A stretch of DNA of 64,000 nucleotides from Treponemataceae bacterium (GCA_963677895.2 CAXXGJ010000025.1:64001-128000), one strand, 5' to 3'; shown: positions 911 to 20,085, counted from the stretch's first letter. Notes: generated by a model from the letters alone, not told the origin. Numbers and translations are program-made.

Positions 911-2026
911 TCACATCAAATTCTCGGGATTGAGCCTCTCGAGTTCCGGCAGCACAAACCGGCCGTCCTTCCTCGCGAGCTTGCCGTCCAGCCAGATTTC
1001 CCCGCCTCCCGACGCCTCGTCCTGTTTGAGCACGAGGTCCCAGTGCAGGCTCGACCGGTTGCCGTTGAAACAGTCGTCGTAAGAATTCCCCGGCGTTATG
1101 TGCACCGAGCCGGCGATCTTCTCGTCGAACAAGGTATCCAGCAAGGGCTGAGTGATATAGGGATTGACGCCGAAGGCGAACTCGCCCAGATACCGCGCTC
1201 CCTCATCTATGTCGAGCATCGCGTTGACGCGCTTCGTGTCGTTCGCCCGCGCGTCCACGATCTTTCCGTTCTTGAACTCGAACCTCACCTGCTCGAACTT
1301 GAATCCATCCTTCTCGCTCGGCGTATTGTAGCTTAAGACCCCATTCACCGAATCCCTCACGGGAGCCGTATACACTTCCCCGTCGGGGATGTTCATCGTC
1401 CCGTCGCACTTGATGGCGGGGAGGCCCTTGATCGAAAAAGCGAGATCGGTGCCCGGTCCCAGCACCCGAACCTTGTCCGTGCTTTCGAGAAGCTTCACCA
1501 GGGGATCCATGGCCTTCGACATTTTGGCGTAATCCATGGTGCAGACATCGAAGAAATAATCCTCGAAAGCCGCTTCGCTCATGGCCGCGTTTTGGGCCAT
1601 CGCGGGCGACGGATAGCGGAGCACCACCCATCTCGTGTGCGGGACTCTCTGCTCGATATGCACTTTTTTCCAGATATGCTTATTATACAGATCCATTTTT
1701 TCCGCCGGCAGGTCCTTCCAGGCGAATGCGTTGCGCAGGCTCGTGAATCCTATGAACGCGTCCATTTTCTTCATCCGCTCTAGTTCGAATTGGGCCTGCA
1801 GGACAAACTGCTCCTCGGGGCCGTTCAGGTACAGTTCCCTCTCCACCGCCTTGTCGCGGAGCGCCACGAAGGCCAGCCCTCCCGCCGCGTGGACGGCGCC
1901 AACGAGCGCCTTTACGAATTCCGGTTCCGCGTTCGTGTCCTGTATGAGCACCTTTTCGCCTTTTTTCACCATGACGGAATAATTGACCAGGATGTCGGCC
2001 AACCTTCGTATCCTCGGATCCACCAT
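911..2026 (-). CDS. Aminopeptidase, peptidase M29 (AmpS/AmpT) family
   Basis: NIPDGEVYTAP, GEFAFG, LFDEKIAGSVHITPG and SSLHWDLV motifs; AGGAG RBS. Confidence 0.9.
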   Translation of the reverse strand: MVDPRIRRLADILVNYSVMVKKGEKVLIQDTNAEPEFVKALVGAVHAAGGLAFVALRDKAVERELYLNGPEEQFVLQAQFELERMKKMDAFIGFTSLRNAFAWKDLPAEKMDLYNKHIWKKVHIEQRVPHTRWVVLRYPSPAMAQNAAMSEAAFEDYFFDVCTMDYAKMSKAMDPLVKLLESTDKVRVLGPGTDLAFSIKGLPAIKCDGTMNIPDGEVYTAPVRDSVNGVLSYNTPSEKDGFKFEQVRFEFKNGKIVDARANDTKRVNAMLDIDEGARYLGEFAFGVNPYITQPLLDTLFDEKIAGSVHITPGNSYDDCFNGNRSSLHWDLVLKQDEASGGGEIWLDGKLARKDGRFVLPELERLNPENLM

Positions 2027-2487: not shown

Positions 2488-5400
2488 CTAAGGCCTGACC
2501 GGCCGCTCCACAGCAGCCTCGACAGGCCACTCCACAGCAGCCTCGACAGGCCGCTCCACAGCGGCTTCGGCCGCCCATGCATCCCTCACGATATAATAGC
2601 TTTTCTTCAGCTTTTCACGATAGGGAGGAGCCTCTTCCCAAACCTTCCAGAAATAGGGATACGAGGGATTCAACTCTATTCCGCCCGTCGTTTTCCCCTG
2701 CTTTTTATCCCATGCGACCGCGTCGACGAGAAAGCCGTCGGTTGCTATTGTCTTCAGCGCGTCCCTTTCTGGATTGAAATAGCCCGTCCTCGAATCCTGG
2801 AGGACCTGGCGCGAAGAAGGATCGGTCACGTTGATGTAAGTCCAGGGCAGGCGCAAAGAGATGGTCGATCCCTGGATGTTCCAGAGGTTGCCCGCTTCAT
2901 CGAAGGGACCGCGGCGCAGGGCTGAAGCGTCGAAACGCTTCTCGGCGATGCTCCTGCCGTCTTTCGTCCGCGCCGCTCCATTGACGAGCATGCTGATCCG
3001 CTCGAATTGGCCGTCGGAGAGGCGAACCGTGGCGAAGCGGGACATGGCCGCATTGTAGGTCGGGATGACGAGGAGATCAGCTTTGTCGGCCGCGTACAGG
3101 CGGAGGACAAATTCCAGTCCGGAGTTCGTCTTCATTTTGCCGATGGGCCAAAGCATCTGCCCCAGGTCTCGGCCGAGCGTATCGAGTCCGACCAGGATTT
3201 CCTCCGCGGCGAAATCGGGGGCTCGCTTAAGCTTTATCGTAATATTCAGGTACGACGCGTCGGCCGACAGTTCCATTGAATCGACGATGCCATTGCCTTT
3301 ATATGCTACATCGGGCCGTTCCGGAGTCAGGACTTCGTTCGCCATAAGGCCGTAGTTTTGCCCAGGGTCGACGGCGTTGTGCCAGAGGACATGCCGGTCG
3401 TAGGGAATCATAAGCGTCTCGGTGGTCCAGGTTTTCTTCACCCACTCGTCCATCCACTCGAAGATGACGCCGCCGGCATAGCCCTCTTTCCGGATCGCGT
3501 CCATCATCCTGAGGATGCCTTCCCCGGCCGCTGTTTCGCCTAAGCCGCCATGATGCAGTCCATCGGGGGCAAAATGCGCGATGCCCGAACCGTTGGCCAG
3601 GCCGAACTCGGCCACGAGGGCGGGATAGCGTCCATGACTCTCCATGAACTCCCTGAGATATCCGCCATAGCGGAGCAGGCCTTCTTCATCCTTGTAGGAG
3701 CCATAGGCGGTCTCATTGTTCATGAAATCGGGATAGTTCGGGTAGATGTGGTAGGCGCCGAAGAGCCCAGCTGTCATGGCGGGCGTGATTTCAAAGTGAT
3801 CTATGGTCACGCTCGCCCTGTCGTTTCCCTTATTCTTCTTGCCGGTCGCGGGGTCCCACTCCGAGTCGTGTTCCTTGGGATCCAGGGTCGGCCAGCTCAC
3901 GATGGAGACGGGATGGAGCCGGCCGTATCGAGCCGCTTCGATCGACGCCACTTCGTCCAGCGATTCGGCCAGCCATACTTCCGTCGGCGTCGCCTCTGGC
4001 CCGGCCGAGACATACTTCCCCGTATATGCGACATTCCTGTTGTGCGCATCCGTTTCCATGACTTCTTCGCTCTCAAGCTCCCGGCCCACGAGCCATCCCA
4101 GAAGCCATTTCGATACATCGGCCGTATAGATGCCCCAGGCTCTCCCCTTGCGATCCGGCACATTGGCCCGGCCGTAAACGGCATCGATGCCGTAATCGAT
4201 TTCCTTGAGGAAGCTTTCCCTATATTCGGGCGCGAGATAGTCGCCATTGGCGGGATTTTCCTCTGGCCAGATTTCCTGGAGCAGATAGAGCGTTCTGTCG
4301 GGATGCTCGGTATTGTGGATGAACAGCGCCTTATAGAACTCGGGCGGCGGAAGCGTGTAGATCCTTACGGTATTGGCATTCATGTCGGCGATGCCTTCGA
4401 GCCAACGCGCGTAGGTCCCGACGTCTTCCGGGAAATTGGTGAAGTACATACCCGGTTCCGCGAAGCCCATGTTGACGCCGCGCACGAAAAAATCTTTCCA
4501 GCTCCCGTCCTTGTCGCGTAGCTGAAAGCTTTTTCCGAAGGCCCTGACGTCGACTTTGGGTTCGCCTTGTTCGTTGGGTATCAAAGTTCTCGCGGCCTTG
4601 GCCTTTTCCGCGTCGCGTAGTATCGAGCGTATGAGCGGCACATAGGCCTTCCAGAAGAAATAGGCGTTGCTGTCCACCGAATCGTCGATAAGCAGTTTTT
4701 TCAGCCAGGAGATACCCTTCATTCCGTAGGGAGTGGATATAGCCTGGAGGTCGGCGAAATCCCCCGCGAAATACCAGCCCGAATACTGCGGGTTTTTATA
4801 GAGAAGAATGGCCGGAAAGGCTGAAGGCAGCCCGAGGCTATCCAGTTTGGCCTTTCCGCTCGCGGTAAGGTCGAGATTATAATCGGCGACGATTTCCGAT
4901 CCGCTGTCGGGGACGGTCCACTCGAACCAGGAACGGTAGGAAATAGGTTTTTTCGATTTCAGGGTTTCGGCCCAGGGATCTCTGAAGGAAAACTTCAGCC
5001 CGTCCTTGCCCAGATCGTCCTTTTCCGTCAGCACCTCGACATGGTCTTCATCCGAGATGAGAATGTATCCGCGGCCAAAAAAGCTCCATTGCTTGCCGGT
5101 TTGAGCCGCGTAATTGGATATCACCCAGGCAGGGACTTCTTTCCCCGCCGTGAGATCCTCGAAATACTTGCCGATCCATCCTTTCCACTGGATGCCCAGC
5201 AACCTTCCCAGCGTAAGCCTGTCTTTCAGGTTCGTCGGCGAGGCCGCCGAATTGAACTCGGCCATGAAGGTATTCCCGGCCCCCAGGTTCTTCCTTATCG
5301 TCTGGATATCCTCCGAGGTCAAGGCGCCGTATAGCTTGGAGGAAATTTCGCCCGCCAGCTTCTTCTGCATATAGTCGTCTTTGTAGACGCCATAGGTATC

Positions 5401-5754
5401 GGTGATATAGACGATATCGGGCCGCCGTCCATCGGCCGGCAGGGAAAGGCTTCTCCATTCGTTTTCGCCATAAGGATAGAAGCCGAAGTAATCGGATTTT
5501 TCATTATAGAGCCGTCTGGAGCCCAGCTTCGCGATTTTCTCGTTTTTCAGCACCCAGAAAAATCCGGCGTGTTCACGGTAATCTGGATATGGAACGGTCT
5601 TGTCCACAGCCCATATGTTGAGTTCGCGCGATGGGGCGACCTGCCACAAGATGAAAGGAGACAGAACGAGGAGGACCATTCCGGCCGTGATCGCGACGAG
5701 GAGGATGCCCAGGATCATCATCGTGGAACGTTGACCGATTCCAGAACTCTTCAT
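2488..5754 (-). CDS. Membrane-anchored two-domain protein: uncharacterised N-terminal domain fused to a GH-A-clan (GH2-like TIM barrel) glycoside hydrolase
   Basis: N-terminal TM helix. C-terminal half has RGVNMG, NTVRIY, VGRELE (candidate acid/base Glu), YHIYPNYPDF, VAEFG (candidate nucleophile Glu) and FEWMDEW. ATGA overlap with the upstream GT2 gene. Confidence 0.7.
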   Translation of the reverse strand: MKSSGIGQRSTMMILGILLVAITAGMVLLVLSPFILWQVAPSRELNIWAVDKTVPYPDYREHAGFFWVLKNEKIAKLGSRRLYNEKSDYFGFYPYGENEWRSLSLPADGRRPDIVYITDTYGVYKDDYMQKKLAGEISSKLYGALTSEDIQTIRKNLGAGNTFMAEFNSAASPTNLKDRLTLGRLLGIQWKGWIGKYFEDLTAGKEVPAWVISNYAAQTGKQWSFFGRGYILISDEDHVEVLTEKDDLGKDGLKFSFRDPWAETLKSKKPISYRSWFEWTVPDSGSEIVADYNLDLTASGKAKLDSLGLPSAFPAILLYKNPQYSGWYFAGDFADLQAISTPYGMKGISWLKKLLIDDSVDSNAYFFWKAYVPLIRSILRDAEKAKAARTLIPNEQGEPKVDVRAFGKSFQLRDKDGSWKDFFVRGVNMGFAEPGMYFTNFPEDVGTYARWLEGIADMNANTVRIYTLPPPEFYKALFIHNTEHPDRTLYLLQEIWPEENPANGDYLAPEYRESFLKEIDYGIDAVYGRANVPDRKGRAWGIYTADVSKWLLGWLVGRELESEEVMETDAHNRNVAYTGKYVSAGPEATPTEVWLAESLDEVASIEAARYGRLHPVSIVSWPTLDPKEHDSEWDPATGKKNKGNDRASVTIDHFEITPAMTAGLFGAYHIYPNYPDFMNNETAYGSYKDEEGLLRYGGYLREFMESHGRYPALVAEFGLANGSGIAHFAPDGLHHGGLGETAAGEGILRMMDAIRKEGYAGGVIFEWMDEWVKKTWTTETLMIPYDRHVLWHNAVDPGQNYGLMANEVLTPERPDVAYKGNGIVDSMELSADASYLNITIKLKRAPDFAAEEILVGLDTLGRDLGQMLWPIGKMKTNSGLEFVLRLYAADKADLLVIPTYNAAMSRFATVRLSDGQFERISMLVNGAARTKDGRSIAEKRFDASALRRGPFDEAGNLWNIQGSTISLRLPWTYINVTDPSSRQVLQDSRTGYFNPERDALKTIATDGFLVDAVAWDKKQGKTTGGIELNPSYPYFWKVWEEAPPYREKLKKSYYIVRDAWAAEAAVERPVEAAVEWPVEAAVERPVRP
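2497..2568. repeat. 24-bp tandem repeat x3 encoding (EAAVE[R/W]PV)3
   Basis: gaccggccgctccacagcagcctc / gacaggccactccacagcagcctc / gacaggccgctccacagcggcttc at the extreme 3' end of the 1088-aa gene. Confidence 0.95.
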
Positions 5755-8700
5755 TTCTTGTCCTTGTCAGGCTGATTCCCGGTAGGCCCCTGGGCCGTGC
5801 CGGATGAGGAAAAGCCCTTTCTTTCCATCTTGCCCCAACCTTTCGGCTTTTTCATGGCGCTCAGGAAACCGAACACGCGCCACATCGAAAACAGCTGCCT
5901 GGGACCGAAATTCTCGATGAGGGCGATGGCGAGCATCTTCAGAGTATCCTTATACGAGAAATAATAGATCTGCCGCTCAGCGATCAGCACTGAAGCCATG
6001 GAAATGAGGATCCCCATGAAGACGGTCGAGAGGAAAAGAAGAATGGCGAGCTTGGCGCTTATCAAACCGAGAAGAGCCGCCAAGAAGACCATGAAATAGC
6101 CTTGAATCTCAAATAGCGGGCCGATCATCTCGAAAATAAGAAAATACGACATCCCGATCATGCCCATTTTTCCATAGCCGGGATTGAAAATCAGCTTTCT
6201 GTGGAAATACAGTATATCGATGAGCCCTCTATGCCATCTGTCCCTCTGCCGCTTCAGGACATCTATGCTTTCCGGAACCTCCGTCCAGCAGTTGGCGTTA
6301 TAGGCGTAGCTTATCCTGTATTTCTGCTTTTTTTCCCGCATATGCCTGGCCAGCCTCACGACGAGCTCCATGTCTTCTCCCACGGTATCCTTCCCGTACC
6401 TTTCGTTGCTGGTAAGATAGCCGCCTACGCTGACCACCCGCTCCTTCCGGAAAAGACCGAAGGCGCCGGAGATAATGAGAAGCGTATTGATCTGCGCCCA
6501 GCCGAGCCTGCCGCACATGAATGCCCTCAGATATTCGATGGTCTGCAGTTTGGCCAGGTTGTTGGCCGGAAGCGCTATGTGCGTGAGCTTTCCGCGGTCC
6601 ACGCCGCATCCGTTTATGGGGAACACGTTGCCGCCCATCGCGGGCGTCTCCACCCCGTAATCGAGGGTCATGGCGGCGACCTTCAGCAATGAATCGGGCT
6701 CGAGAAGCGAATCGGCGTCTATGCCGCAAAAATATTCCTTGGAAGCGATGTTGATGCCGGCGTTGAGCGAATCGGCTTTCCCGCCGTTGTCCTTGTCCAC
6801 GACGACGAGACGCGGGTAAAGAGGATTCAAATAGATTCCCCTCACCGAAGCCGTCTTCAGCCGCTGTGTGTAATAATAATCCGTCCGCTTGAGACCGTAA
6901 TGGGAAATGAGGCTGTTCAGCGTGCCGTCGCGAGATCCGTCGTTGACGACGACGAGCTCGTAGTCCGGATACTTGAGATTGAGCAGGGAACTCGTGCTCT
7001 CTATGATCGTCTTCTCTTCGTTGAAAGCCGGGGCGATGATGGAGACCGAAGGAAGTATGCGGGGCTTGAAAAGGAAGGACATCGTCTTGAGATTCCAGAG
7101 CCGGGTGGAAGATTTCACCTTCACGGTCGAGAGCAGGAGGAGAACGATATAGATCGCGTTGATCGTCATCGAATACCAGGCAAAGTTATAGTTTACGTCC
7201 ACGACGTAGGTTTTCAGCTGCACGAGCGGCGGGATGGAACCTATCTGGCTGCCATGGCTTAAAAAGTAAATAGCGGGAAAAAACAGAAGCGATCCGATCA
7301 ATATCATATAGAGCCGACGCACCATTTTCCAGTCCCGTTTTTCTTCGCGCTTTTTGACGGGAACCGTGATTCTCCGGAAACCGCATTTCTCGATGAGGCG
7401 ATCGGGAAGATAGAGTCCGCATTCCGTCCTCAGCCTTTCGCTTCCATCGGCTTCTTCGCGTATGATGGCGATTACGGCAGCCTCCAGAGCCTCATCCTTG
7501 TTCAGTTTCAAAAACTCGATGATCTCCGAAACCTTCCCGAGCCGGATGACCTCGCTTATGAGCCGGGCCGACTTTTCCTTCTCCTTCCCCGAGAGTTTGG
7601 TTATGAAATATTCGATCTTTCCAGCCAGGATTTCCGCCAGGCTCTGGACGATGTTCTCGTCGGTCGTTTCCTCGAAAGCTTCGACGACCGATGGAATGAG
7701 CCGCGGATGCTCCATGAGAATCCGCGAGAGGCCAATTTTCGCCGGTATCGCCGTCTGCTCATCTCCGAGATAGCGCAGCAATGTATCGATATTATCCTGG
7801 CTGTTTCCGTCGCCGAGGGAGCGCACCGCGATGGCGCGGATATCCTTGTCTTCATGTTCGAGGAACTCCGTGGAATTCAATACATCGCCATAGAATTTTT
7901 CGATGCACTCGGCCGCTTTCAGCATGAGCCTGTGATGGTTCTCCACGGGGTGTTGGCTCGTGACAAGGAGCTTGAAATGCCTGCAGTAAAAATCCGGCGA
8001 GACGCTGCCCTTGTATTTGCATTGTCTTCGCTGATCGTCGGCGATCGTCTGTCCATGCCTGCAGAAGGCGCAGCATTTTTCGGGACAGCCATGCACCAAA
8101 GCCGAAAGCCGGGCCATCTCGGCCTGCCCCCCGGAGAGCATCGCGACAAGATACTCCTTAAGGTCTTCAGAAATATAGGTGATGGATATATCCAGAAAGA
8201 GCTCGAGTATCTCGCTGTCTTCGCGCCAGAAATATCCGCGCAGATAATCTGAAGCCTCCGGACCGAAGGAAGCGATGAGGAGATTCACTTTATCGCGATA
8301 CCAGCGATGCGCGCCGATCAGGCTCTCTACGAGTACATTCAGGGACCGGGGATCCCCGATTTCGGCTAACGCGTTCGCTATGAACAGCTTGACGGGAAAT
8401 TCCTTTTCGACAAGAAGCGCTTTTTCGAGTGTCGCGCGGGCATCGTCGCTCCTGATCAAGGAAAGTCCCAGAGAGGCTTCCATCCGCTCGTAGCGGCTTT
8501 GATACCTGATTCTTCTCTTGAGGATGGACTCCAGCTTTTCCGACCTGGCCAGGCTGAGAATCCTGAGATGCTCCTTTTCGGGAAGCTGTATGGACTGCTT
8601 CAGCCGCAGGTAATTATCGAAAAGCCTGCTCACTCTTTTCTTGTCCCACTTGGTGCCTGTCTCGAAAAGATGGTTGAGTTGGGCGATTTCCCTTTGTCGC

Positions 8701-8816
8701 CGCTCGTCAGAAAGCGCAAGCCTGGACTTGTTGATCAGCGTCGTCAAAATGATGAAAATATCGAACCAAAGGAAAAAGATAACGGCGAGCAGTATGAATT
8801 CTATCTCGAGATTCAT
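5751..8816 (-). CDS. HEAT-repeat + processive family 2 glycosyltransferase (PgaC/IcaA/cellulose-synthase-like) fusion
   Basis: N-terminal TM and HEAT-like helices (ANALAEIGDPRSL; RAIAVRSLG). GT2 motifs PAFNEE, NDGSRD, GGKADSLNAG, DADS, GEDME and QRDRW (QxxRW), flanked by TM helices. Confidence 0.88.
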   Translation of the reverse strand: MNLEIEFILLAVIFFLWFDIFIILTTLINKSRLALSDERRQREIAQLNHLFETGTKWDKKRVSRLFDNYLRLKQSIQLPEKEHLRILSLARSEKLESILKRRIRYQSRYERMEASLGLSLIRSDDARATLEKALLVEKEFPVKLFIANALAEIGDPRSLNVLVESLIGAHRWYRDKVNLLIASFGPEASDYLRGYFWREDSEILELFLDISITYISEDLKEYLVAMLSGGQAEMARLSALVHGCPEKCCAFCRHGQTIADDQRRQCKYKGSVSPDFYCRHFKLLVTSQHPVENHHRLMLKAAECIEKFYGDVLNSTEFLEHEDKDIRAIAVRSLGDGNSQDNIDTLLRYLGDEQTAIPAKIGLSRILMEHPRLIPSVVEAFEETTDENIVQSLAEILAGKIEYFITKLSGKEKEKSARLISEVIRLGKVSEIIEFLKLNKDEALEAAVIAIIREEADGSERLRTECGLYLPDRLIEKCGFRRITVPVKKREEKRDWKMVRRLYMILIGSLLFFPAIYFLSHGSQIGSIPPLVQLKTYVVDVNYNFAWYSMTINAIYIVLLLLSTVKVKSSTRLWNLKTMSFLFKPRILPSVSIIAPAFNEEKTIIESTSSLLNLKYPDYELVVVNDGSRDGTLNSLISHYGLKRTDYYYTQRLKTASVRGIYLNPLYPRLVVVDKDNGGKADSLNAGINIASKEYFCGIDADSLLEPDSLLKVAAMTLDYGVETPAMGGNVFPINGCGVDRGKLTHIALPANNLAKLQTIEYLRAFMCGRLGWAQINTLLIISGAFGLFRKERVVSVGGYLTSNERYGKDTVGEDMELVVRLARHMREKKQKYRISYAYNANCWTEVPESIDVLKRQRDRWHRGLIDILYFHRKLIFNPGYGKMGMIGMSYFLIFEMIGPLFEIQGYFMVFLAALLGLISAKLAILLFLSTVFMGILISMASVLIAERQIYYFSYKDTLKMLAIALIENFGPRQLFSMWRVFGFLSAMKKPKGWGKMERKGFSSSGTAQGPTGNQPDKDKK

Positions 8817-10846
8817 CTCCCCGCCCCTGCCGATGTCATATTACGGACAATCCCCAGAAGTTCGGGGAGAAGATAAGGTTTTTTCAGATAATGGTCGATT
8901 CCCAATTTATACGCTCTGGAAACGGATTTTTCATCCTTTCGATGGGACATCAGTATGAAAGGAATATCCTTGGTTCCCGATTTCCTCGAAAGGGCTTCCT
9001 TGAGCATGAGGCCGTCGATCTTGGGAACCATGAGTTCCGAGATGATGAGATCGTAGCCTTCCTCGCTTATTTTTTTCAGGGCTTCGGCGCCGTCTTCGGC
9101 TACGGCGACGGAATAATCGGCATTCTCGAGAAATGTCCTGATGACGCCCGCGTTTACGGCATCGTCGTCGATGATCAAAATTTTCGCCTTGGATTCGACC
9201 TCCGTCCCGACCTCGGACGACGAACATATGGTATCGCCGCCGCGCCGCCGCGCCCAACGCAAACGCCTCAAGCCGATCTCGTAGAGCGAAGCCCCGGCCT
9301 CGGCGGAATCCATGATCGACGACCTGATTTCGGCTATCGCGACGAGGCCGATGGATATGGTGACCGGCTCTATGAAGGACCTGGAGATCTCGACATTCTT
9401 CCTAATTTGCTCGCAGAGATCATTCGCTTCATGGAAGACGATGCGCGGCATCCAGATCGCGAAGGTCGCCCCATGCAGGCGGAAAACAGGCTGGCTCGCT
9501 GTCTTGTGTTCGAGCATGATCCTGGTAACGCCCTTGAGGACAGCCTCCACTTCGCGCGGGCCGTATTGATATTCGATTGTGGAAATAGTGTCATCGATGC
9601 CGATAACGGCCAGGACATCGTCTTCCATCCCTTCCGCGTTCAGCGAAAGCGAGGCTTGCTCGTCGATGAAATTTCGGAAGAAAGCTTCGTTGTATAGTCC
9701 GGTGGTGGTGTCCCGCAGCTGGGATTCGTTCGCTTGGCCGTAAGCCTGCATGAGCTGTTCGTTCAGCTGCCTGAGTCTGGCGACTTCCTGCCCAAGCTCT
9801 TCGAAATTCCGCTCCGATTCCTTCAGGATGGATGCGTATATCCCGGGACGCTTTATGCCGAATTCCTCGCAGAGTTTGGCCACGAAAGGTTCCAGCAGGG
9901 TCAGAGCGGAATGGCCCTGCACCAGATAAATAGTGTCGGCGAGCCTGTTCCACAGGTCCAAGCCCATCGGCGCTGCGTTGACGATGGCGCCGGTCTCAGG
10001 GTCCAATTCAAGCCCAAGCTTGAGGGCAACCGTATCGGCAAACTTCCGGCCATAAACGGCGGAAAAACGCGCCAAAAGCTGCTTGGACGGCTCAAGGGAC
10101 TCACTGGAATCGCCCAGGTTTTTTTTGGGGAAACCCAGCAAAGTGCCGCATTCCAGGGTTCTCAGCGCGTCGATATACGTCTTGATGTCGCGATTGATGA
10201 TCGATCCATGCTGGGGAAGAATGGCGGCGAGTTCGAGACAGGAGAAGATTTCCATTACCGGTCCCAATATTTCGTGGGAGGGCATGTAATGTTCATGGAA
10301 GGTTTTCATCCCATCCAAATAGTCTTTCCCCGCATAGAGCGACCACTCGGGCGTAAAAGCGCCGAAAAGGTCGCTGGAAAGAAGTAATTTAGCCTGTCTA
10401 TCGTAGGTCGCGATCGCGCCGGGAAAATGAAGATAAGCCGTCGGTATGAAGCGCAGCGCTCTCCCCGAGGCAAGGGTGAGAAGATACCCATGCTCATCCA
10501 CCAAGTAGACGGGCGATTGGATCCCATAGAAACGAACAAGCGTCCAGGTTCTCCAGTGCGTTACGATGGTGAAGCGCATTCCGAGCGCCTCTAGGTGAGG
10601 CACCGCCGAAGCGAGATCGGGATCCTGATGGGACAGCACTACATATTTGACTTTTTCGAGCGGTATTATGGAGGCGATATTGGCCGCCACCTCCCCGACA
10701 TCGAGGACCGATCCAGGGTCGAACAGGACGGCTTCTTCTCCCTCGACGAGCAAATAGGGATTGCACTGAAGACTATCGGTTGCGGCCCGGGCGCCGACCC
10801 AGTAATAGCCTGACCCAAGGGATTCGCCCCCGCTTCCTGACGCCAT
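8813..10846 (-). CDS. ODP-like metallo-beta-lactamase di-iron sensor + degenerate GGDEF + pseudo-receiver protein
   Basis: SHQDPDL, LHFPG, SSDLFG, FHEHYMPS and PQHG ligand motifs. DTTTGLYN opens the GGDEF-like domain, whose signature is replaced by HGATF. REC domain has IIDDD and KKP, but Glu at the phospho-acceptor position (IISELMVP). CAGGAG RBS before ATG 10846. Confidence 0.82.
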   Translation of the reverse strand: MASGSGGESLGSGYYWVGARAATDSLQCNPYLLVEGEEAVLFDPGSVLDVGEVAANIASIIPLEKVKYVVLSHQDPDLASAVPHLEALGMRFTIVTHWRTWTLVRFYGIQSPVYLVDEHGYLLTLASGRALRFIPTAYLHFPGAIATYDRQAKLLLSSDLFGAFTPEWSLYAGKDYLDGMKTFHEHYMPSHEILGPVMEIFSCLELAAILPQHGSIINRDIKTYIDALRTLECGTLLGFPKKNLGDSSESLEPSKQLLARFSAVYGRKFADTVALKLGLELDPETGAIVNAAPMGLDLWNRLADTIYLVQGHSALTLLEPFVAKLCEEFGIKRPGIYASILKESERNFEELGQEVARLRQLNEQLMQAYGQANESQLRDTTTGLYNEAFFRNFIDEQASLSLNAEGMEDDVLAVIGIDDTISTIEYQYGPREVEAVLKGVTRIMLEHKTASQPVFRLHGATFAIWMPRIVFHEANDLCEQIRKNVEISRSFIEPVTISIGLVAIAEIRSSIMDSAEAGASLYEIGLRRLRWARRRGGDTICSSSEVGTEVESKAKILIIDDDAVNAGVIRTFLENADYSVAVAEDGAEALKKISEEGYDLIISELMVPKIDGLMLKEALSRKSGTKDIPFILMSHRKDEKSVSRAYKLGIDHYLKKPYLLPELLGIVRNMTSAGAGR

Positions 10847-10994
10847 CGCGTACTCCTGCCCTACTGATGTTATAGTTTGGCTCAATTCACGGCATAACAC
10901 CGCTATCCCGTGATAATACAGCGTTCAACTTCAATAATAATGCATAATGATACGCTTAGTAAGGCTTTTTACTGTTTGTCCCTGCATATTTCAT

Positions 10995-11023
10995 TTGACA
11001 GCAAAAAAGGGCAAGGGTATGCT
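10995..11023 (+). promoter_or_regulatory. Sigma70-type promoter of cstA
   Basis: TTGACA (10995-11000), 17-bp spacer, TATGCT (11018-11023); AGGAGG RBS at 11041-11046. Confidence 0.75.
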
Positions 11024-11051
11024 ACTTTATCCGTTTTTGCAGGAGGACTGC

Positions 11052-12752
11052 ATGAGTACTATCATTGCCTTGGCCGCGATCGCAATCTATGTCGTTTTCT
11101 ACTTCACCTACGGCAAAAAGATCCGCGACAACGTGCTCAAGAGCGAAAAAGCCCCCGAGGCCCCATCGAAGAGGCTATCGGATGGCGTCGACTACGTTCC
11201 GACGTCCAAGTACGTCCTGTTCGGCCATCACTTCGCCTCGATAGCCGGAGCGGGACCGATCACCGGCCCGGCTATGGCCGTGGCTTGGGGCTGGCTCCCC
11301 GGCTTGCTGTGGATCTGGTTCGGCAACATCTTCCTTGGCGCCATCCACGACTACCTCTCGCTCGTGGCCTCCGTCCGTTATGACGGTCGCTCGATGCAGT
11401 TCGTAGCCCAGGATGTGATCGGGAAGAAAGCCGGCAAGACCTTCAGCTGGTTCATTCTCTTCCTCACCATCCTCGTCGTGGCGGCTTTCGGCGACATCGT
11501 CGCGGGACAGTTCGCCGCTGACGGACGCGTATTCTTCTCCTTCGTCTTCTTCTGCGTAGCGGCCTTCGTCGCCGGCTTCGCCATGTACAGATCCAAGCTG
11601 GGCTTGGGAAAGGGCACACTGATCGGCCTCGCCCTCATCATCGTGGCCTTTTTCTGCGGAAACCTGCTCCCCGTAAAGTGGGCTAAGGATGTCTACTTTC
11701 TCATCATCTTCGTCTACATCGTCCTCGCGTCGACCTTGCCGGTCAACCTGCTTCTGCAGCCGCGCGACTACCTCTCCTCTTTCTTCCTCTATTTCGGCCT
11801 CATCGTCGGCGGTTACGCCGCTATCTCGAGCGGCAAAGCCCTGGACGCCATCCCGGCCTTCACGACCTTCAGCGCCAAGCTGATCGGCCCCGCCGGCAAC
11901 CTCCAGCCCTCGCCCTTCTGGCCCTGCGTGCCGCTCATCATAGCCTGCGGCGCCCTTTCTGGATTCCATTCTCTCGTGGCGGCCGGAACCTCTTCCAAGC
12001 AGCTTAGAGAGGAAAAAGACGCTCTCTTTGTCGGTTATGGCGCCATGCTCGTAGAAGGCTTCCTCGCCACCCTCGTCCTGATTTCTATCGCCGGATGGGG
12101 CGTCCTCGCGATGGGCGACAAGGTGATGGCCACGCCTGCCCTTGGCCGCTTCGTCAATTCCTTCGCCAAGATGGTCAGCATGCAGATTCCCTTCATGGGC
12201 GAAAGCTTCATGAGACTTTTCGCCGCGGTCTGGGTATCCACCTTCGCACTCACGACTCTCGACACGACGAACCGCCTCGGCCGCTACATCATGCAGGAAA
12301 TGGCCGAACCCTTGAAGGACAAGAGCCCAGTAATCTACGGCATCTTCCACAACAAGTGGGTAGCCTCCATACTCATCGCCTTCATCGGCCTCTTCCTCGC
12401 GCGCTCCGGCGGCTACACGGTCATATGGCCGGCATTCTCCGGCGCCAACCAGCTTCTGGCCTCGGTCGCCATGCTCACTGTCGCCATCTGGGTCAACAAG
12501 AAGCTCAACGCGAAGTTCGTCCTCGCGACGGTGCTTCCCGCCCTGCTGCTCTGGGTGACCGTCGTCTGCGCCCTTGTCTGGTATGAAATCGTGATCATCC
12601 CCGTATTCTTCATCGATATGGCCAAAACCATGAACGTCATCACCGGCACTGTGGTCGGCGTCATGAACCTTTTGATGATCATCCTCTCCTTCGTGATGCT
12701 GTTCGCGTTCAGGAAACAGTGGAACGCGAAAAACGCGATGGAAAAAGCCTGA
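11052..12752 (+). CDS. cstA: Carbon starvation protein A family transporter (peptide/pyruvate)
   Basis: DGVDYVPTSKYVLFGHHFASIAGAGPI, LLQPRDY, IACGALSGFHSLV, TTLDT and WPAFSGANQLLA motifs; many TM segments. Confidence 0.95.
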   Translation: MSTIIALAAIAIYVVFYFTYGKKIRDNVLKSEKAPEAPSKRLSDGVDYVPTSKYVLFGHHFASIAGAGPITGPAMAVAWGWLPGLLWIWFGNIFLGAIHDYLSLVASVRYDGRSMQFVAQDVIGKKAGKTFSWFILFLTILVVAAFGDIVAGQFAADGRVFFSFVFFCVAAFVAGFAMYRSKLGLGKGTLIGLALIIVAFFCGNLLPVKWAKDVYFLIIFVYIVLASTLPVNLLLQPRDYLSSFFLYFGLIVGGYAAISSGKALDAIPAFTTFSAKLIGPAGNLQPSPFWPCVPLIIACGALSGFHSLVAAGTSSKQLREEKDALFVGYGAMLVEGFLATLVLISIAGWGVLAMGDKVMATPALGRFVNSFAKMVSMQIPFMGESFMRLFAAVWVSTFALTTLDTTNRLGRYIMQEMAEPLKDKSPVIYGIFHNKWVASILIAFIGLFLARSGGYTVIWPAFSGANQLLASVAMLTVAIWVNKKLNAKFVLATVLPALLLWVTVVCALVWYEIVIIPVFFIDMAKTMNVITGTVVGVMNLLMIILSFVMLFAFRKQWNAKNAMEKA

Positions 12753-12830
12753 CCGATTAATTCGGGTCTGGCGGCGCGTTCATGACGCCTCGCGTCGAAG
12801 ACGCGCCGCCGGATAAGTCAGCCAAAGTCC

Positions 12831-12862
12831 AGCCGGACGGCATCGAGCCGTCCGGCTTTTTT
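12831..12862 (+). terminator. Intrinsic terminator after cstA
   Basis: agccggacggc-atcga-gccgtccggct stem-loop followed by a T run. Confidence 0.8.
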
Positions 12863-12886
12863 ACGGATACGGAGATTTGCGCAAGC

Positions 12887-12915
12887 TTGCTGATAAAAGT
12901 CCGCGGTAGTATAGT
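12887..12915 (+). promoter_or_regulatory. Candidate promoter for the ArsA/Get3 module
   Basis: TTGCTG, 17-bp spacer, TATAGT immediately after the cstA terminator. Confidence 0.5.
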
Positions 12916-12972
12916 CATGGGTGTTCCCGAAGGAACGGGCGGTCAAAGATACTAATTTTCAAGGGAGTCGAG

Positions 12973-13254
12973 ATGCCTCAAAGTATCGGACATATCATCA
13001 AATCGGCAATCCATATCGCCACCCAGATAAACCGAGAAAGGGCAACCGGCCTTATCGAATTCGAAGAAAAGGAACTCGAGAATATTTTCGCGCTCCTTAT
13101 CCTAGGCGGTTTCGCGGGGCTTCCCTCCCCCCCCTCCCCGATAGCCATCGAACTGCTTCCCTATATGGAAAAAGAGCTCATAATGCTGCTATCGCGAACC
13201 GATCTGGCACAGGATCCCATCGGGGTTCTCGCCGGCATGTTCGAGATGGGCTAA
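12973..13254 (+). CDS. Small CstA/ArsA-associated protein (cory-CC-star-like)
   Basis: 93 aa with ELENIFALLILGGFAGLPSP...IELLPY, resembling (from memory) small proteins encoded between cstA and arsA-like genes; AGGGAG RBS. Confidence 0.65.
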   Translation: MPQSIGHIIKSAIHIATQINRERATGLIEFEEKELENIFALLILGGFAGLPSPPSPIAIELLPYMEKELIMLLSRTDLAQDPIGVLAGMFEMG

Positions 13255-13267
13255 GGTAGGAGCCATC

Positions 13268-14215
13268 ATGAACAGCACGGCTTTTTTCCTGGGCAAGGGC
13301 GGAGTAGGCAAGACCACCCTTTCGAGCGCCTTTGCCCTCACGCTCGCCAGACGAGGCGCTAAAGTGCTCATCGCCTCGCTCGACCCGGCGCACAATCTGG
13401 GCGACGCCCTCGACATAAGCCTGAACGGCAACGTCAAGACGGTCGAGCCTAACTTGGACGCCCTCGAGGTCGATCTCGCCTATTGGGTGGACAAATACCT
13501 CGACGACAGCCGCAAACAGCTGAAAGCCAATTATTCCTACAATGTCACGCTGAACCTGGACTCTTTCTTCAACATCCTGAAGTATTCGCCCGGCACTGAG
13601 GAATACGCCGTGCTTTGGGCGATTGAGGATATCCACTGCAGGCTTGGCCCTCTCTACGACATCGTCGTCTTCGATACGCCGCCCACGGCCCTCTCCCTGC
13701 GCTTTCTCTCCCTGCCCACGATTTCGGGGCTCTGGGTCAAGGAACTGAGCAAGCTGAGAGAAAAAATCCTCGCGAAACGGCAGACGATCACCCGCCTCAA
13801 TCCCGAATCCCCCGTCGCCGCGAGCTGCGTCGACAAGGATGACGACAAGGTATACGGACAGCTCAACACTATCGGGGCAAGACTCCGAAAACTGGAGCAC
13901 CTCTTCGCCAAGGAAAGTTTCCTCAGCGTCATCGTTAACCCGGACCAGCTCTCGGTCGATGAAGCCTTGCGGATCCAGGATGAACTGACCAAGTTGGGTA
14001 TTCCGCTATCGGCGGTCTGCGTCAACAAGCAGGGCGTGTCCGATATGATATGGGAGCAGAATCCCTCCCTTGCCCGATATCCGCAGTTCATCTACGATTT
14101 TTCGCGCGGAGGCATTTCGACGAGGGAGAACCTCCTCACTATCGGCGCCGGACCTATCGCGGATCACTTCCTGAAAACCGTTCAAAATCCAACAACCGAG
14201 AGGAAGAAAAAGTAA
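13268..14215 (+). CDS. Single-domain ArsA/Get3 (TRC40) family ATPase
   Basis: Deviant Walker A GKGGVGKTT, switch I DPAHNL, switch II DTPPT; 315 aa equals one ATPase domain. Confidence 0.92.
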   Translation: MNSTAFFLGKGGVGKTTLSSAFALTLARRGAKVLIASLDPAHNLGDALDISLNGNVKTVEPNLDALEVDLAYWVDKYLDDSRKQLKANYSYNVTLNLDSFFNILKYSPGTEEYAVLWAIEDIHCRLGPLYDIVVFDTPPTALSLRFLSLPTISGLWVKELSKLREKILAKRQTITRLNPESPVAASCVDKDDDKVYGQLNTIGARLRKLEHLFAKESFLSVIVNPDQLSVDEALRIQDELTKLGIPLSAVCVNKQGVSDMIWEQNPSLARYPQFIYDFSRGGISTRENLLTIGAGPIADHFLKTVQNPTTERKKK

Positions 14216-14841
14216 TGGAAACGACATATTTGATTCCGCTTCTGCTTCTGGGCATCGCCGGCAGCACACAGTATTTCCTGGGTTCCAAGAAAAACAGATG
14301 GCTCGGGAAGCAAATGTCCATCCAGGCCGAAAACGTCTTCAAACCCAGGGATACGGAGTACGTCAATATCGGGGGCGTGATAGGCCACAACTTCATATAC
14401 AAGCTCCGCGATCCCTGGAAAGAAGCCAAGGGATCGTTCATCTTCATCCCCAGACATTCTCTCCTCTACGTTCCCTTTTCTTACCTCATCGGCAGCCGCG
14501 ACCGTTTCCTCTTCAACCTTTTCACGGACAAGAAACTGGCGGGAGAAGGCCATATCGTGGAGAAGAGCCATCTCAGGCGCACGAAGATCGACGGCATAGC
14601 GCAGATGGAACGCGAGGAAATTGAATGCGGAGGCAAGACCTTCGTTCTCCTCTGGCGAGATGCCGCCATGCTTGCCGCCTTGAAAAGGACCCTTGAGGCC
14701 ATGCCCGATCCCGCGACGCTCGCGCATTTCTGCTGTTACGACGACAATAAAACTTTTTTCCTGTATCTGAAGCCCCGCAAGGGAGCGATCGAGGCGAATC
14801 TTAAAAAATTCCTGGAACTCTGCCCCGAGTATTTCCGATAA
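14215..14841 (+). CDS. Membrane-anchored hypothetical protein (possible CCDC47/DUF1682-like)
   Basis: TAATG overlap with the ATPase stop; N-terminal TM followed by YFLGSKKNRWL and FIPRHSLLY motifs. The family resemblance is judged by eye only. Confidence 0.7.
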   Translation: METTYLIPLLLLGIAGSTQYFLGSKKNRWLGKQMSIQAENVFKPRDTEYVNIGGVIGHNFIYKLRDPWKEAKGSFIFIPRHSLLYVPFSYLIGSRDRFLFNLFTDKKLAGEGHIVEKSHLRRTKIDGIAQMEREEIECGGKTFVLLWRDAAMLAALKRTLEAMPDPATLAHFCCYDDNKTFFLYLKPRKGAIEANLKKFLELCPEYFR

Positions 14842-15868: not shown

Positions 15869-16807
15869 TTGCTGAAATATGTAATTTATCGTATCGGCAG
15901 CATGTTCGCGACACTCTTCATCATCATCACCATCACATTCTTCCTGATGCACGCCGTTCCCGGCGGCCCTTACGATTTCGAAGGCCAAGATCTCCAGGAG
16001 GAGGTCGTCGTCATCCTCCAGGAAAAATACCATCTCAACGACCCGATCCTGAAACAGTACTTGGATTACCTGAAAGGCGTGGTGACTTTCGATCTGGGAC
16101 CTTCTTTCTATTACTCCGGACGATCCGTCACCGAAGTGATAGCGCAAGGGTTCCCCGTCACGGCCAAACTCTCGCTGCTCTCTCTCCTGATAGTCTTCGT
16201 GATGAGCGTACCGATGGGCGTCACCGCGGCTATGCACAGGAACAAGGCGGCCGACCGCATCATCATGTTCGTGGCCACCCTTGGCCGCACTATCCCCGCC
16301 TTCGTGCTCGGGACTTTATTCATCTATTTCCTTTCCTATAAGCTCAGATTGTTTCCTATTTACGGGATAGGATCCTTCAGTCATTACATTCTTCCCGCCA
16401 TCGCGCTCTCGCTCTCTTCCATATCCCATCTCACCCGTCTCAACCGGGCATCGATGCTGGATGTCATCCACCAGGACTATATCCGCACGGCTTGGGCCAA
16501 GGGACTTCCCGAATACAAGATTGTGTATAAGCACGCGCTCAAGAACGCGTCGATCCCGATGGCCACCGTCCTGGGCGCCAGAATCGCCGCGCTGCTCACG
16601 GGCTCATTCGTGATCGAACAGATGTTCGCGATGCCCGGCATCGGTCGATATTTCGTCCAGGCAATAAACAACCGCGATTACCCGATGATCATGGGCGTGA
16701 CGATTTACTTCTCGCTGATTCTGCTTGTGTGCATGCTTTTAGTCGATATCGTCTATGGATGGCTCGATCCGAGGGCCGTCGTCTATGGCAAGCGAGGGGG
16801 GAAATAA
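15869..16807 (+). CDS. oppB: Oligopeptide ABC transporter permease
   Basis: TTG start after AGGAGG; PGGPY, DLGPSF, DYIRTAWAKGL (EAA loop), KHALKNA and NRDYP motifs. Confidence 0.92.
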   Translation: MLKYVIYRIGSMFATLFIIITITFFLMHAVPGGPYDFEGQDLQEEVVVILQEKYHLNDPILKQYLDYLKGVVTFDLGPSFYYSGRSVTEVIAQGFPVTAKLSLLSLLIVFVMSVPMGVTAAMHRNKAADRIIMFVATLGRTIPAFVLGTLFIYFLSYKLRLFPIYGIGSFSHYILPAIALSLSSISHLTRLNRASMLDVIHQDYIRTAWAKGLPEYKIVYKHALKNASIPMATVLGARIAALLTGSFVIEQMFAMPGIGRYFVQAINNRDYPMIMGVTIYFSLILLVCMLLVDIVYGWLDPRAVVYGKRGGK

Positions 16808-16808
16808 A

Positions 16809-17981
16809 ATGGCTGCATTGGATTTTGCCCCCGGCGACTGGCTGCCGGATGAAACACCCGCCGCCGACCGCGAAGGTCTGGACGTCAAGAAATCGCTCTC
16901 CTATTGGGAAGATGTATGGAGGCGTTTCAGGCAGAACAAAATGTCCCTTGTGGGACTAGTTCTCCTCGTCATCCTCATCCTGACCGCCGTCTTTGGCCCA
17001 TCGCTCACGAGGCTGTCGGATTCTGACCAGAACCTTGACTACATTCACATTCCGCCCGTCATGAACCTCTATTCCTTCGAAGAACGCTATTTTATCTATC
17101 TGTCGCCCGCCATGCAGCTCTATGAAGTCTCGGTCGACGGGAAAATGCTGGGACCAATCCAGCAGACCGAAGACGACATATTCTCGAAGCGCAGGATGTA
17201 CGATCTCCATGGCGAGACGATCCTTGTTGATTACCGGAAAAAACCGGTGACGCTCTCCGGCGAATCAGGCGCGAGACTGACCATCGGCAGGAAAAATGTA
17301 TGGAACAAGAAGTACTGGTTCGGAACTGACGCTGTCGGCAGAGACCTTTTTGTGCGCATCGTCTATGGAGCCCGAATTTCGATGATCATCGGCTTTGTCG
17401 CCTCCCTTATGAACCTGACGCTCGGCGTGCTCTACGGCGGGATTTCAGGATATATGGGCGGCATGATCGACAATACGATGATGCGCATCGTCGATATTCT
17501 CAAATCGATCCCCAGACTGCTCTACGTCATACTGCTTATGGTGGTTTTTGGCTCCGGCCTGCTGACCGTCGTGATAGTCATCGGTCTCGTGGATTGGCTT
17601 GGCATGGCGAGAATCGTGCGCGGCCAGGTGCTTTCCATCAAGCATCAGGAATATGTGCTGGCCGCCCGAGCCCTAGGCGCGAATTCGAAACGAATTCTTC
17701 TCAGGCATCTTATACCCAACGCCATGGGACCCATCATCGTTCAGACGACGATGAACATCCCGGCGGCCATTTTTACCGAGGCTTTCCTGAGTTTTGTGGG
17801 CCTCGGCGTCTCGGCTCCCCAGGCTTCCTGGGGAACGCTCGCGAACAACGCGCTCTCCGGCTTCATGAGCTATCCATATGAGATGTTTTTCCCTGCCATG
17901 GCCATTTGCCTCACTGTCCTGGCCTTTAATTTCGTAGGCGACGGCCTGCGCGACGCCATCGACCCGAGACTCAGAAACTGA
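16809..17981 (+). CDS. oppC: Oligopeptide ABC transporter permease
   Basis: WRRFRQNK, FGTDAVGRD, EYVLAARALGA and GDGLRDAIDPR motifs. Confidence 0.92.
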   Translation: MAALDFAPGDWLPDETPAADREGLDVKKSLSYWEDVWRRFRQNKMSLVGLVLLVILILTAVFGPSLTRLSDSDQNLDYIHIPPVMNLYSFEERYFIYLSPAMQLYEVSVDGKMLGPIQQTEDDIFSKRRMYDLHGETILVDYRKKPVTLSGESGARLTIGRKNVWNKKYWFGTDAVGRDLFVRIVYGARISMIIGFVASLMNLTLGVLYGGISGYMGGMIDNTMMRIVDILKSIPRLLYVILLMVVFGSGLLTVVIVIGLVDWLGMARIVRGQVLSIKHQEYVLAARALGANSKRILLRHLIPNAMGPIIVQTTMNIPAAIFTEAFLSFVGLGVSAPQASWGTLANNALSGFMSYPYEMFFPAMAICLTVLAFNFVGDGLRDAIDPRLRN

Positions 17982-17997
17982 TCGAAGGAAGGATGCG

Positions 17998-19056
17998 ATG
18001 AGCGATATTATTCTGGAAGTCAGTCATCTCAGGACCTCGTTTTTCACCCACTTGGGAGAAGTGCAGGCGGTAAGGGACGTGAGCTTCGACGTGAAACGCG
18101 GCGAGGCTTTGGGAATAGTTGGCGAATCGGGCTGCGGCAAGAGCGTGACTATGCTGTCGGTCATGAAGCTCGTGCAGGAGCCGGGGAAAATACTGGGCGG
18201 TGCCATTTCTTTCAAAGGCAAAGACCTCCTCGCCAAAAGCAAAGCGGAAATGCGTTCCATTCGCGGTAATGAAATTTCCATGATTTTCCAAGACCCCCTG
18301 ACTTCCCTCAATCCCGTCTTCAGCATAGGGAACCAACTCATGGAATCGATCCTCTCACACAATAGGATGCCAAGAAACGAAGCCAGGAAAAAAGCCGTGG
18401 ATCTCCTTAAGCTCGTCGAGATACCATCCCCCGAAGAAAGACTGCGCCAATATCCCTACGAGATGAGCGGAGGAATGCGGCAGCGCGTGATGATCGCCAT
18501 GGCTCTTGCGGGAGAACCCGACCTTCTTATCGCCGACGAGCCTACGACGGCCTTGGACGTCACGATCCAGGCACAGATACTCGGGCTTATGAAGGGGCTC
18601 ATGAGCCGCCTAAACACGGCCATCGTCATCATTACCCACGATCTGGGCGTCGTGGCCGACTTCTGCGAAAGGATTATCGTCATGTACGGCGGGCAAATCG
18701 TGGAATCGGGGAACAAACGCCAAATTTTCTACAATCCCCTGCATCCCTACACCGTCGGCCTTCTTGGCGCCGTGCCTGGTCCCGATATGCGCAAGGAAGA
18801 AGTACGGCTCGCCACGATACCGGGTTCCCCCCCCGACCTTGTCGAACCGCCTAAAGGCTGCCCTTTCTACAGCCGATGCCTGGTGGCCATGAAGGTCTGC
18901 GGCAAGCGCTGCCCTTCGATCGAAAGCGTCGGGGATGGGCAGGAAGTGCGCTGCTGGCACTACAGCAAGGATAATCCTGGGCAAATCCCGGCTGTCCTCC
19001 AGAACTCCGCTGTCCGGTTGCGGTCTGGCGGCCAAACTCAAGGTGGCGGCAGATGA
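17998..19056 (+). CDS. oppD: Oligopeptide ABC transporter ATP-binding protein
   Basis: [26 protein letters not shown] motifs; C-terminal GCPF..RC. Confidence 0.93.
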
Positions 19057-20030: not shown

Positions 20031-20085
20031 ACCAGCGACCCGGCCTCGATGCCGGAGTCGGAACATTATAGCAAGGGGGCTATCG

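Follow-up and report, generated by a model that had tools for sequence, protein, structure and literature searches.

A predicted glycan synthase operon headed by a di-iron ODP regulator in a Treponemataceae bacterium, a candidate for control by oxygen or iron

The 64,000-nucleotide stretch of a Treponemataceae genome analyzed here (GCA_963677895.2 CAXXGJ010000025.1:64001-128000; hereafter the window) contains three adjacent minus-strand genes that appear to encode a compact glycan machine. In this predicted system, a family 2 glycosyltransferase (GT2) fused to HEAT repeats would be switched by O2 or Fe(II) via a regulator headed by an ODP di-iron domain, and not by cyclic di-GMP (c-di-GMP) or phosphorylation; we put the probability of this reading at about one half. 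That the synthase makes a glycan is highly probable. The three open reading frames (ORFs; 8813-10846, 5751-8816 and 2488-5754, in gene order) were recovered at the coordinates given in a preliminary description of the locus, and both junctions indeed read ATGA. The named close homologues belong to Rectinemataceae, and the host is therefore most probably a member of that spirochaete family and presumably an anaerobe. The features of the operon are as follows.

8813..10846, minus strand: gene 1, regulator of 677 amino acids (aa), predicted cytoplasmic; ODP, helical linker, coiled coil, degenerate GGDEF and Glu-substituted receiver
10205..10771, minus strand: ODP di-iron domain, aa 26-214 (Pfam PF19583, 1e-56)
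9212..9715, minus strand: degenerate GGDEF-fold domain, aa 378-545, with RLHGATF at the A-site and no RxxD I-site
8846..9181, minus strand: receiver, aa 556-667, with Glu604 replacing the phosphorylated Asp
5751..8816, minus strand: gene 2, 1021 aa; N-terminal transmembrane (TM) helix, HEAT solenoid, two TM helices, processive GT2 and C-terminal membrane helices
7377..8642, minus strand: HEAT/alpha-solenoid arm, aa 59-480, predicted cytoplasmic (Pfam HEAT_2 and model)
7983..8072, minus strand: four-cysteine (Cys4) module C249-x2-C252-x13-C266-x11-C278 within the HEAT arm, where binding of a metal (Zn or Fe-S) is predicted
6207..7052, minus strand: GT2 catalytic domain, aa 589-870, with DxD, QxxEY, GED and QxxRW
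2488..5754, minus strand: gene 3, 1088 aa; TM anchor, alpha/beta domain, GH-A barrel and beta-rich C-terminal domain
4585..5637, minus strand: N-terminal alpha/beta domain of gene 3, aa 40-390 (~350 aa), from the model; absent from ~700-aa homologues
3325..4557, minus strand: clan GH-A (beta/alpha)8 domain, aa 400-810, in which E559, following strand 4, is the predicted acid/base and E716, on strand 7, the predicted nucleophile
2493..2569, minus strand: 24-base-pair tandem repeat, 3.2 copies, encoding a low-confidence tail that lengthens the C-terminus of gene 3

The sensor/GGDEF-like/receiver organization proposed for gene 1 in the preliminary description is borne out by Pfam matches to all three domains (ODP, 1e-56; Response_reg, 2e-23; GGDEF, a weak 3e-10). 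The ODP match scores 192 bits against a cut-off of 27.2, and the domain is most similar to two ODPs of solved structure (PDB 6qrq, 1e-26; 6qnm, 5e-24), compared with 3e-13 for the best flavodiiron protein. In the alignment, H73-Q-D-P-D77, H140, D159 and H213 of gene 1 are identical in both solved ODPs, so that the motif is intact in the window, as had been claimed; we take these residues to be the iron ligands. All seven metal-site positions are present in 39 of the 52 aligned regulators, from two phyla and with 30-45% overall identity, and the HQDPD, SxDLF-type and PQHG motifs are present in each of the 19 metagenome regulators. Gene 1 is the only strong ODP match in the genome, the three others being far weaker. 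The solved ODPs, from Treponema denticola (6qnm) and Thermotoga maritima (6qrq), share the Pfam family and the metal-site residues with gene 1 and are described as stand-alone, chemoreceptor-coupled proteins, with ODP in the role of an oxygen sensor (PMC7666581); in contrast, the window ODP is fused to signalling-type domains and adjoins a synthase. The chemoreceptor domain MCPsignal has no match in the genome, which is 92.8% complete; if the genome truly lacks a chemoreceptor, a chemotactic role for the gene 1 sensor would be excluded.

The remainder of gene 1 consists of signalling domains in which the canonical functional sites are replaced. A GGDEF/GGEEF-type A-site is found in none of the 52 regulators, and the canonical I-site likewise in none of these ODP-type proteins, one of which has a displaced RxxD (locus L074); Glu occupies the receiver phospho-site in 50 of the 52. 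Given the loss of the A-site, the I-site and the phosphorylated Asp, gene 1 is predicted to be devoid of c-di-GMP synthesis, of the usual mode of c-di-GMP binding and of the usual phosphorylation. Among receiver substitutions, the replacement of Asp by Glu is the most frequent, and it can activate the domain independently of phosphate (PMC4395418). The Desulfosporosinus acidiphilus-type regulator (L141:6904-8928) retains the phospho-site Asp, and the operon to which it belongs lacks a directly downstream hydrolase. The preliminary description was silent on the receiver Glu and the absent A- and I-sites, as well as on the Cys4 module of the HEAT arm and the additional 350-aa N-terminal domain of gene 3.

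Gene 2 was previously called a HEAT-repeat processive GT2 with intact motifs, and this assignment stands. Pfam identifies HEAT_2 (2e-14) along with GT2 families, and all 51 homologues in the alignment retain D700-x-D702, QxxEY, G813-E814-D815 and Q857-R-D-R-W861 without change; the D, DxD, (T/G)ED and QxxRW signatures and the flanking membrane helices that define processive GT2 enzymes are all present. The structural model (predicted local distance difference test, pLDDT, 77.7, with poorly modeled stretches in the catalytic domain) is closest in fold to a hyaluronan synthase (Z 16.3, root-mean-square deviation (rmsd) 3.8, 369 aligned positions), followed by PcManGT, which we take to be a mannosyltransferase of the lipid-acceptor type (Z 13.9), another hyaluronan synthase (13.8) and cellulose synthase (10.2). 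The synthase has no Pfam match to PilZ or MshEN.

The four cysteines of the module embedded in the HEAT arm are invariant in all 28 aligned inserts (the alignment omits one long-loop insert and one near-identical copy), and the region, aa 241-290, is modeled at pLDDT 80-86; this pattern suggests that the module likely binds a metal, as Zn or Fe-S. Synthases of the Sphaerochaetaceae type lack the module, as does a subgroup of 979-aa proteins. When a profile of it was run against 1.84 billion representatives, 182 matches emerged, mainly stand-alone proteins of ~70 aa; an unnamed family of such proteins (P0194-P0337), some with tandem copies, is homologous to the synthase insert. None of the 28 inserts matches HiPIP (PF01355), and among 54 stand-alone relatives there are two weak matches (E 0.01-0.016, below the cut-off) in the second Cys repeat; the Atlas gave no match to the module, and searches with PDB profiles returned none or chance matches, with no HiPIP among them. 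Of the 52 loci, 18 combine an intact ODP with Cys4, 21 have an intact ODP only, 7 have Cys4 with a degenerate ODP, 4 lack both, and the remaining 2 are truncated or without ODP; because only a few independent events underlie these counts, we do not claim complementarity between the two putative metal sites.

Gene 3 has no match in Pfam, NCBIfam or PDB sequences. Its AlphaFold model (pLDDT 90.9) contains a glycoside hydrolase (GH) clan GH-A barrel that is most similar to GH157 (Z 29.9, rmsd 2.5, 316 aligned positions, 16% identity, no sequence-level match) and next to GH2, GH5, GH164 and GH72 (Z 23 for the latter); Foldseek points to GH157, GH2 and GH158. Together with a predicted N-terminal TM helix and the invariance of E559 and E716 in 82 sequences, the model is consistent with the earlier suggestion of a membrane-anchored GH-A-type hydrolase. 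The GH157 endo-beta-1,3-glucanase (PDB 9fz9) and GH2, GH5, GH72 and GH158 enzymes share the barrel fold and the placement of the two Glu residues with gene 3 but, apart from the low similarity, differ in lacking its N- and C-terminal domains and membrane anchor. For the N-terminal domain, no usable match came from the sequence profiles of Pfam or the PDB; the Atlas gave unnamed clusters (0.95-0.96) and two weak leads, MJECL34 (0.83) and DUF2194 (0.82), none of which was accepted as a name. In two loci, a second hydrolase paralogue lies shortly downstream (L066:11652-14294 and L034:9321-12000), the former with N-terminal TPR repeats. In two Proteocatella loci, a GH16 gene precedes the hydrolase (L086:6896-7918 and L103:7004-8005); the one searched is lichenase-like, a hint of a beta-glucan product.

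The genomic neighborhoods indicate that the trio is kept together, as the preliminary description would predict. Strong synthase matches are present in 27 of 61 genomes (the host and 60 relatives). In the 20 regions that were fetched, the regulator always precedes the synthase; the hydrolase comes next in 16, is lacking in two and is cut off in two. A scan of a genome collection with the hydrolase as the query, with the best 80 of 183 loci kept, yielded 45 full trios from two phyla and two trios with a split synthase frame; of the others, two have the regulator at a contig end, four have a fused synthase cut before the regulator, two are cut within the synthase, 11 are of a split type with separate HEAT and GT2 genes and no ODP (the HEAT repeats being confirmed by Pfam in seven), and 14 have no GT2, most of these lying at contig ends but L081 being fully flanked. 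Among these 80 loci, every fused HEAT-GT2 gene with enough upstream DNA is directly preceded by an ODP-type regulator, compared with none of the 11 split-type loci. Full trios are found in Spirochaetota and Bacillota, including Sphaerochaeta halotolerans and Desulfitispora alkaliphila, in two gene orders with the regulator and the synthase always adjacent; the Sphaerochaetaceae-type order is hydrolase-regulator-synthase. In the converse search, with a Desulfosporosinus regulator as the query (20 loci, several of them near-copies, one receiver-only match dropped), a HEAT or HEAT-GT2 gene directly follows the regulator in 16 of 19 cases, and the other three stop at a contig edge. The full-length regulator is rare across the phylum (4 of 251 evenly sampled genomes); its profile produced 820 matches at E 1e-40 or better among 7992 scored in a protein collection, perhaps not all of them full-length. 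Homologues of the regulator are encoded in the cultured Acetobacterium wieringae and Desulfosporosinus acidiphilus.

Beyond the ODP-headed loci, the synthase belongs to a broader assemblage. Its GT2 subfamily (31-42% identity) also occurs on plasmids from Alphaproteobacteria, Bacteroidota and haloarchaea; in each of the six loci opened, the GT2 directly follows a HEAT or HEAT-sized gene, a stand-alone receiver is present in five of the six, and a YaiO barrel in two (Mesorhizobium and Emticicia). The five plasmid receivers keep the Asp or have an acidic residue nearby, the Emticicia receiver being atypical. In Deinococcus, Planococcus and Paenibacillus, a HEAT and GT2 pair is accompanied by the same hydrolase, and three split-type regulators of Bacillota have the architecture receiver-GGDEF-receiver with Asp, two of them with an RxxD I-site (L091, L133). 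In a quick tree of 79 GT2 domains, from which four broken rows were left out, 58 fused domains are separated from 21 separate ones by a branch with a Shimodaira-Hasegawa-like approximate likelihood ratio (SH-aLRT) support of 94, with the two phyla of the trios interleaved. When a profile of the ODP-type receivers was run against 56 receiver rows from proteins without ODP, the top four were cassette receivers (93, 87, 86 and 75 bits; best unrelated, 74). Because the forms of the cassette differ in the regulator, the receiver, HEAT and GT2 core seems to be constant and the input variable; judging from these comparisons, the window operon is the ODP-headed, fused branch of the cassette. Descent of the dead GGDEF domain from split-type regulators was considered and found unsupported, as it is not particularly similar to the split-type domains that carry an I-site. 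In three split-type loci without ODP, a short gene lies right after the GT2 (L086:13645-14106, L101:13632-14111 and L103:13733-14209), and the two that were scanned match rubrerythrin, possibly a second link of the synthase family to di-iron proteins. In locus L088 (2782-17993), a fused ODP-type operon and a split-type operon are located face to face in one genome. Where the ODP ligands are lost, a PP2C (SpoIIE) gene and a kinase-like gene can occur at the head of the operon (L046:3919-5196, L048:3026-4630 and L047:6047-7723).

The following mechanism is proposed. The synthase, which retains all catalytic motifs and, by sequence and predicted fold, has a channel-type layout resembling that of hyaluronan synthase, would polymerize a uridine diphosphate-activated sugar and pass the chain across the inner membrane. 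The sugar is slightly more likely than not an N-acetylhexosamine, with glucose as the less probable candidate. On the outer face, the hydrolase might trim, release or re-attach the chain. The receiver could dock on the HEAT arm, with Glu604 keeping this interaction phosphorylation-independent; that the receiver is the docking part is suggested by distantly related cassettes, in which a receiver lies next to the HEAT gene, and a complex predicted from HEAT-arm residues 30-495 and receiver residues 548-677 scored 0.01 against a mark of 0.32, which counts neither way. Metal loading or O2 binding by ODP would then alter the regulator dimer and, with the coiled coil and the dead GGDEF domain as a scaffold, open or close the synthase. 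More speculatively, the Cys4 module may be a second metal or redox site. Extended in this manner, the scheme becomes one of direct gating by metal centers, in which a di-iron sensor docks via a locked receiver on a HEAT arm carrying an iron-sulfur-type Cys4 switch, with neither a nucleotide messenger nor phosphorylation; the operon would then represent the branch found in anaerobes of a receiver-HEAT-GT2 family that crosses domains and accepts interchangeable inputs (phosphorelay, c-di-GMP, phosphatase/kinase, di-iron), and the hydrolase would found a new family of clan GH-A. We advance this extended scheme tentatively and consider it doubtful as a whole.

Several observations weigh against the proposed reading. 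Of the regulators outside the 39 with a full ligand set, 11 have degenerate ligands, one is truncated at a contig end and one (L049) has no ODP; since the operon is retained where ligands or domain are lost, the metal site seems to be dispensable in some lineages. The preliminary description of the operon as an ODP-sensor system is qualified accordingly: the motif is intact in the window, and in the wider cassette ODP appears to be an exchangeable input. The change of Asp to Glu alone is often insufficient for activation (PMC4395418), and the scores of the other four of the eight cassette receivers (68, 55, 46 and 45 bits) do not exceed those of unrelated receivers. The operon contains no outer-membrane exporter, and no YaiO was detected in the genome, so that export beyond the periplasm is left unexplained. 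The clues to the polymer conflict, with an IcaA/PgaC-like synthase on the one hand, and beta-1,3-glucanase-like hydrolase folds and the lichenase-like GH16 of two split-type loci on the other. The hydrolase, which follows the synthase in 8 of 11 assessable metagenome loci, is missing from the other three and from L044 and L049. Finally, the locus counts are not independent trials because the loci are related and were picked by similarity.

The likeliest of the alternatives, which we nevertheless regard as unlikely, is that gene 1 activates the same glycan machine constitutively or serves as a scaffold for its assembly, with an ODP that is structural or vestigial and gates nothing. The decay of the ligands in 11 of the 52 regulators and the absence of ODP in L049, where the GGDEF-like and receiver parts are retained, would fit this possibility, as would the split-type cassettes that function without ODP and the capacity of a phospho-site Glu to lock a receiver on (PMC4395418). 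Against it, the complete ligand set is preserved in 39 of 52 regulators as divergent as these, from two phyla, and the three motifs in all 19 metagenome proteins; unless metal binding were under selection, such retention would be difficult to account for.

A second alternative, in our estimate quite unlikely, concerns the product, which could be a short glycan, either periplasmic or linked to a lipid, that the GH-A protein remodels or transglycosylates; control by O2 or iron may still apply in this case. The lack of an exporter in the operon and of a detected YaiO in the genome, the position of PcManGT, of the lipid-acceptor type, as the second-best synthase fold, the GH72 transglycosylases among the fold neighbors of the hydrolase and the haloarchaeal cassettes that contain neither hydrolase nor porin are all compatible with a short product; by contrast, the intact QxxRW motif and the hyaluronan synthases among the best fold matches (Z 16.3 and 13.8) favor a polymer, and the YaiO-family outer-membrane barrels next to the Mesorhizobium and Emticicia relatives suggest chain export. 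Control by c-di-GMP, bound non-canonically by either the GGDEF-like domain or the HEAT arm and with ODP in a tuning role, is improbable: although there are 14 GGDEF matches in the genome, active-looking cyclase genes adjoin some operons (L088, L110, L122, L153, L157) and two of the three split-type regulators examined carry an RxxD I-site, the 52 ODP-type regulators have no canonical I-site, the synthase matches neither PilZ nor MshEN, and the dead GGDEF domain is not specially similar to the I-site-bearing ones.

Comparison with known systems places the gated glycan machine proposed here outside the canonical bcs, pga and pel types, in agreement with the preliminary description: the scores fall far below the cut-offs, the partner families are absent from the operon, and none of the three proteins matches PilZ, a deacetylase or an export porin in Pfam or NCBIfam. 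The closest parallel by NCBIfam is the poly-beta-1,6-GlcNAc systems PgaABCD/IcaADBC, with which the operon shares a processive GT2 (best match PgaC/IcaA, TIGR03937, 1e-32) and the pairing of a synthase with an extracytoplasmic glycan-processing enzyme; the differences are the fused HEAT arm with Cys4, a TIGR03937 score of 113 bits against a cut-off of 422, the absence of PgaD/IcaD, deacetylase and porin, and a hydrolase of clan GH-A with no Pfam family. From Bcs, the operon differs in having no PilZ or BcsB match and a CelA score of 23 bits against a cut-off of 699. In the Pss system of Listeria, the Yda system of Bacillus subtilis and Pel, a catalytically dead GGDEF receptor of c-di-GMP is encoded with a synthase and a hydrolase. 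The window operon likewise has a dead GGDEF protein beside a synthase and a hydrolase, but its regulator is soluble, has lost the I-site, and begins with ODP and ends with a Glu receiver. Xanthomonas xagABCD is described as a polysaccharide operon (PMC3826837, PMC3609779, PMC3542200, PMC9040811, PMC4643136), and xagABCD and the sfz/sfb stalk clusters of iron oxidizers resemble the window operon as small synthase-dependent operons with a GT2 and a hydrolase (PMC3609779, PMC4643136, PMC8250860). The XagB-like Sfz2 has an N-terminal type II secretion system E (T2SS-E)-like domain and a BcsB-like partner, and the sfz study mentions no HEAT repeat (PMC8250860). Identity with xag/sfz was rejected given that the N-terminus of the window GT2 is HEAT, the comparison being by description and not by sequence. 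In the open-access literature, to which the search was confined (subscription journals were outside it), neither this operon nor the receiver-HEAT-GT2 cassette was found described.

The operon is single-copy for each of its three genes in the 3.5-Mb assembly, and contigs from the public run of a second study span the whole stretch with no letter differences. The start of gene 1 was set at the ATG (677 aa) because an AGGAG lies 7 nucleotides upstream and the homologues start there, a GTG at 10900 opening a longer ORF. A consensus scan detected neither a minus-strand promoter 5' of gene 1 nor a terminator after gene 3; consensus boxes of the Fur, PerR, Rex and FNR-like types show no excess over shuffles upstream of 29 regulators, including that of the window. 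The operon is bounded by a divergent cstA upstream and, downstream, by a small convergent gene and then an M29 aminopeptidase gene. The divergent cluster of cstA, a small gene, an arsA-like ATPase and a membrane protein (10947-14841, plus strand) adjoins the operon in several members of the family. The aminopeptidase gene (911-2026, minus strand) follows the operon here and in 10 of the 20 fetched relative regions, which is probably local synteny. Farther away lies an oligopeptide-type ABC transporter cluster (15869-21714, plus strand; called from ORF translations alone).

Among synthase-dependent polysaccharide systems, c-di-GMP is the switch in those best studied. If the proposed mode of control is correct, an oxygen or iron sensor would be tied straight to a synthase, allowing anaerobes to coat themselves rapidly upon a change in O2 or iron. 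Because homologues of the regulator and full trios occur in named organisms, some of them cultured, the idea is directly testable. It would also extend ODP signalling beyond chemotaxis, provide a function for a widespread, unannotated family of HEAT-GT2 proteins, and yield a candidate new glycoside hydrolase family and a candidate new small metal-binding module.

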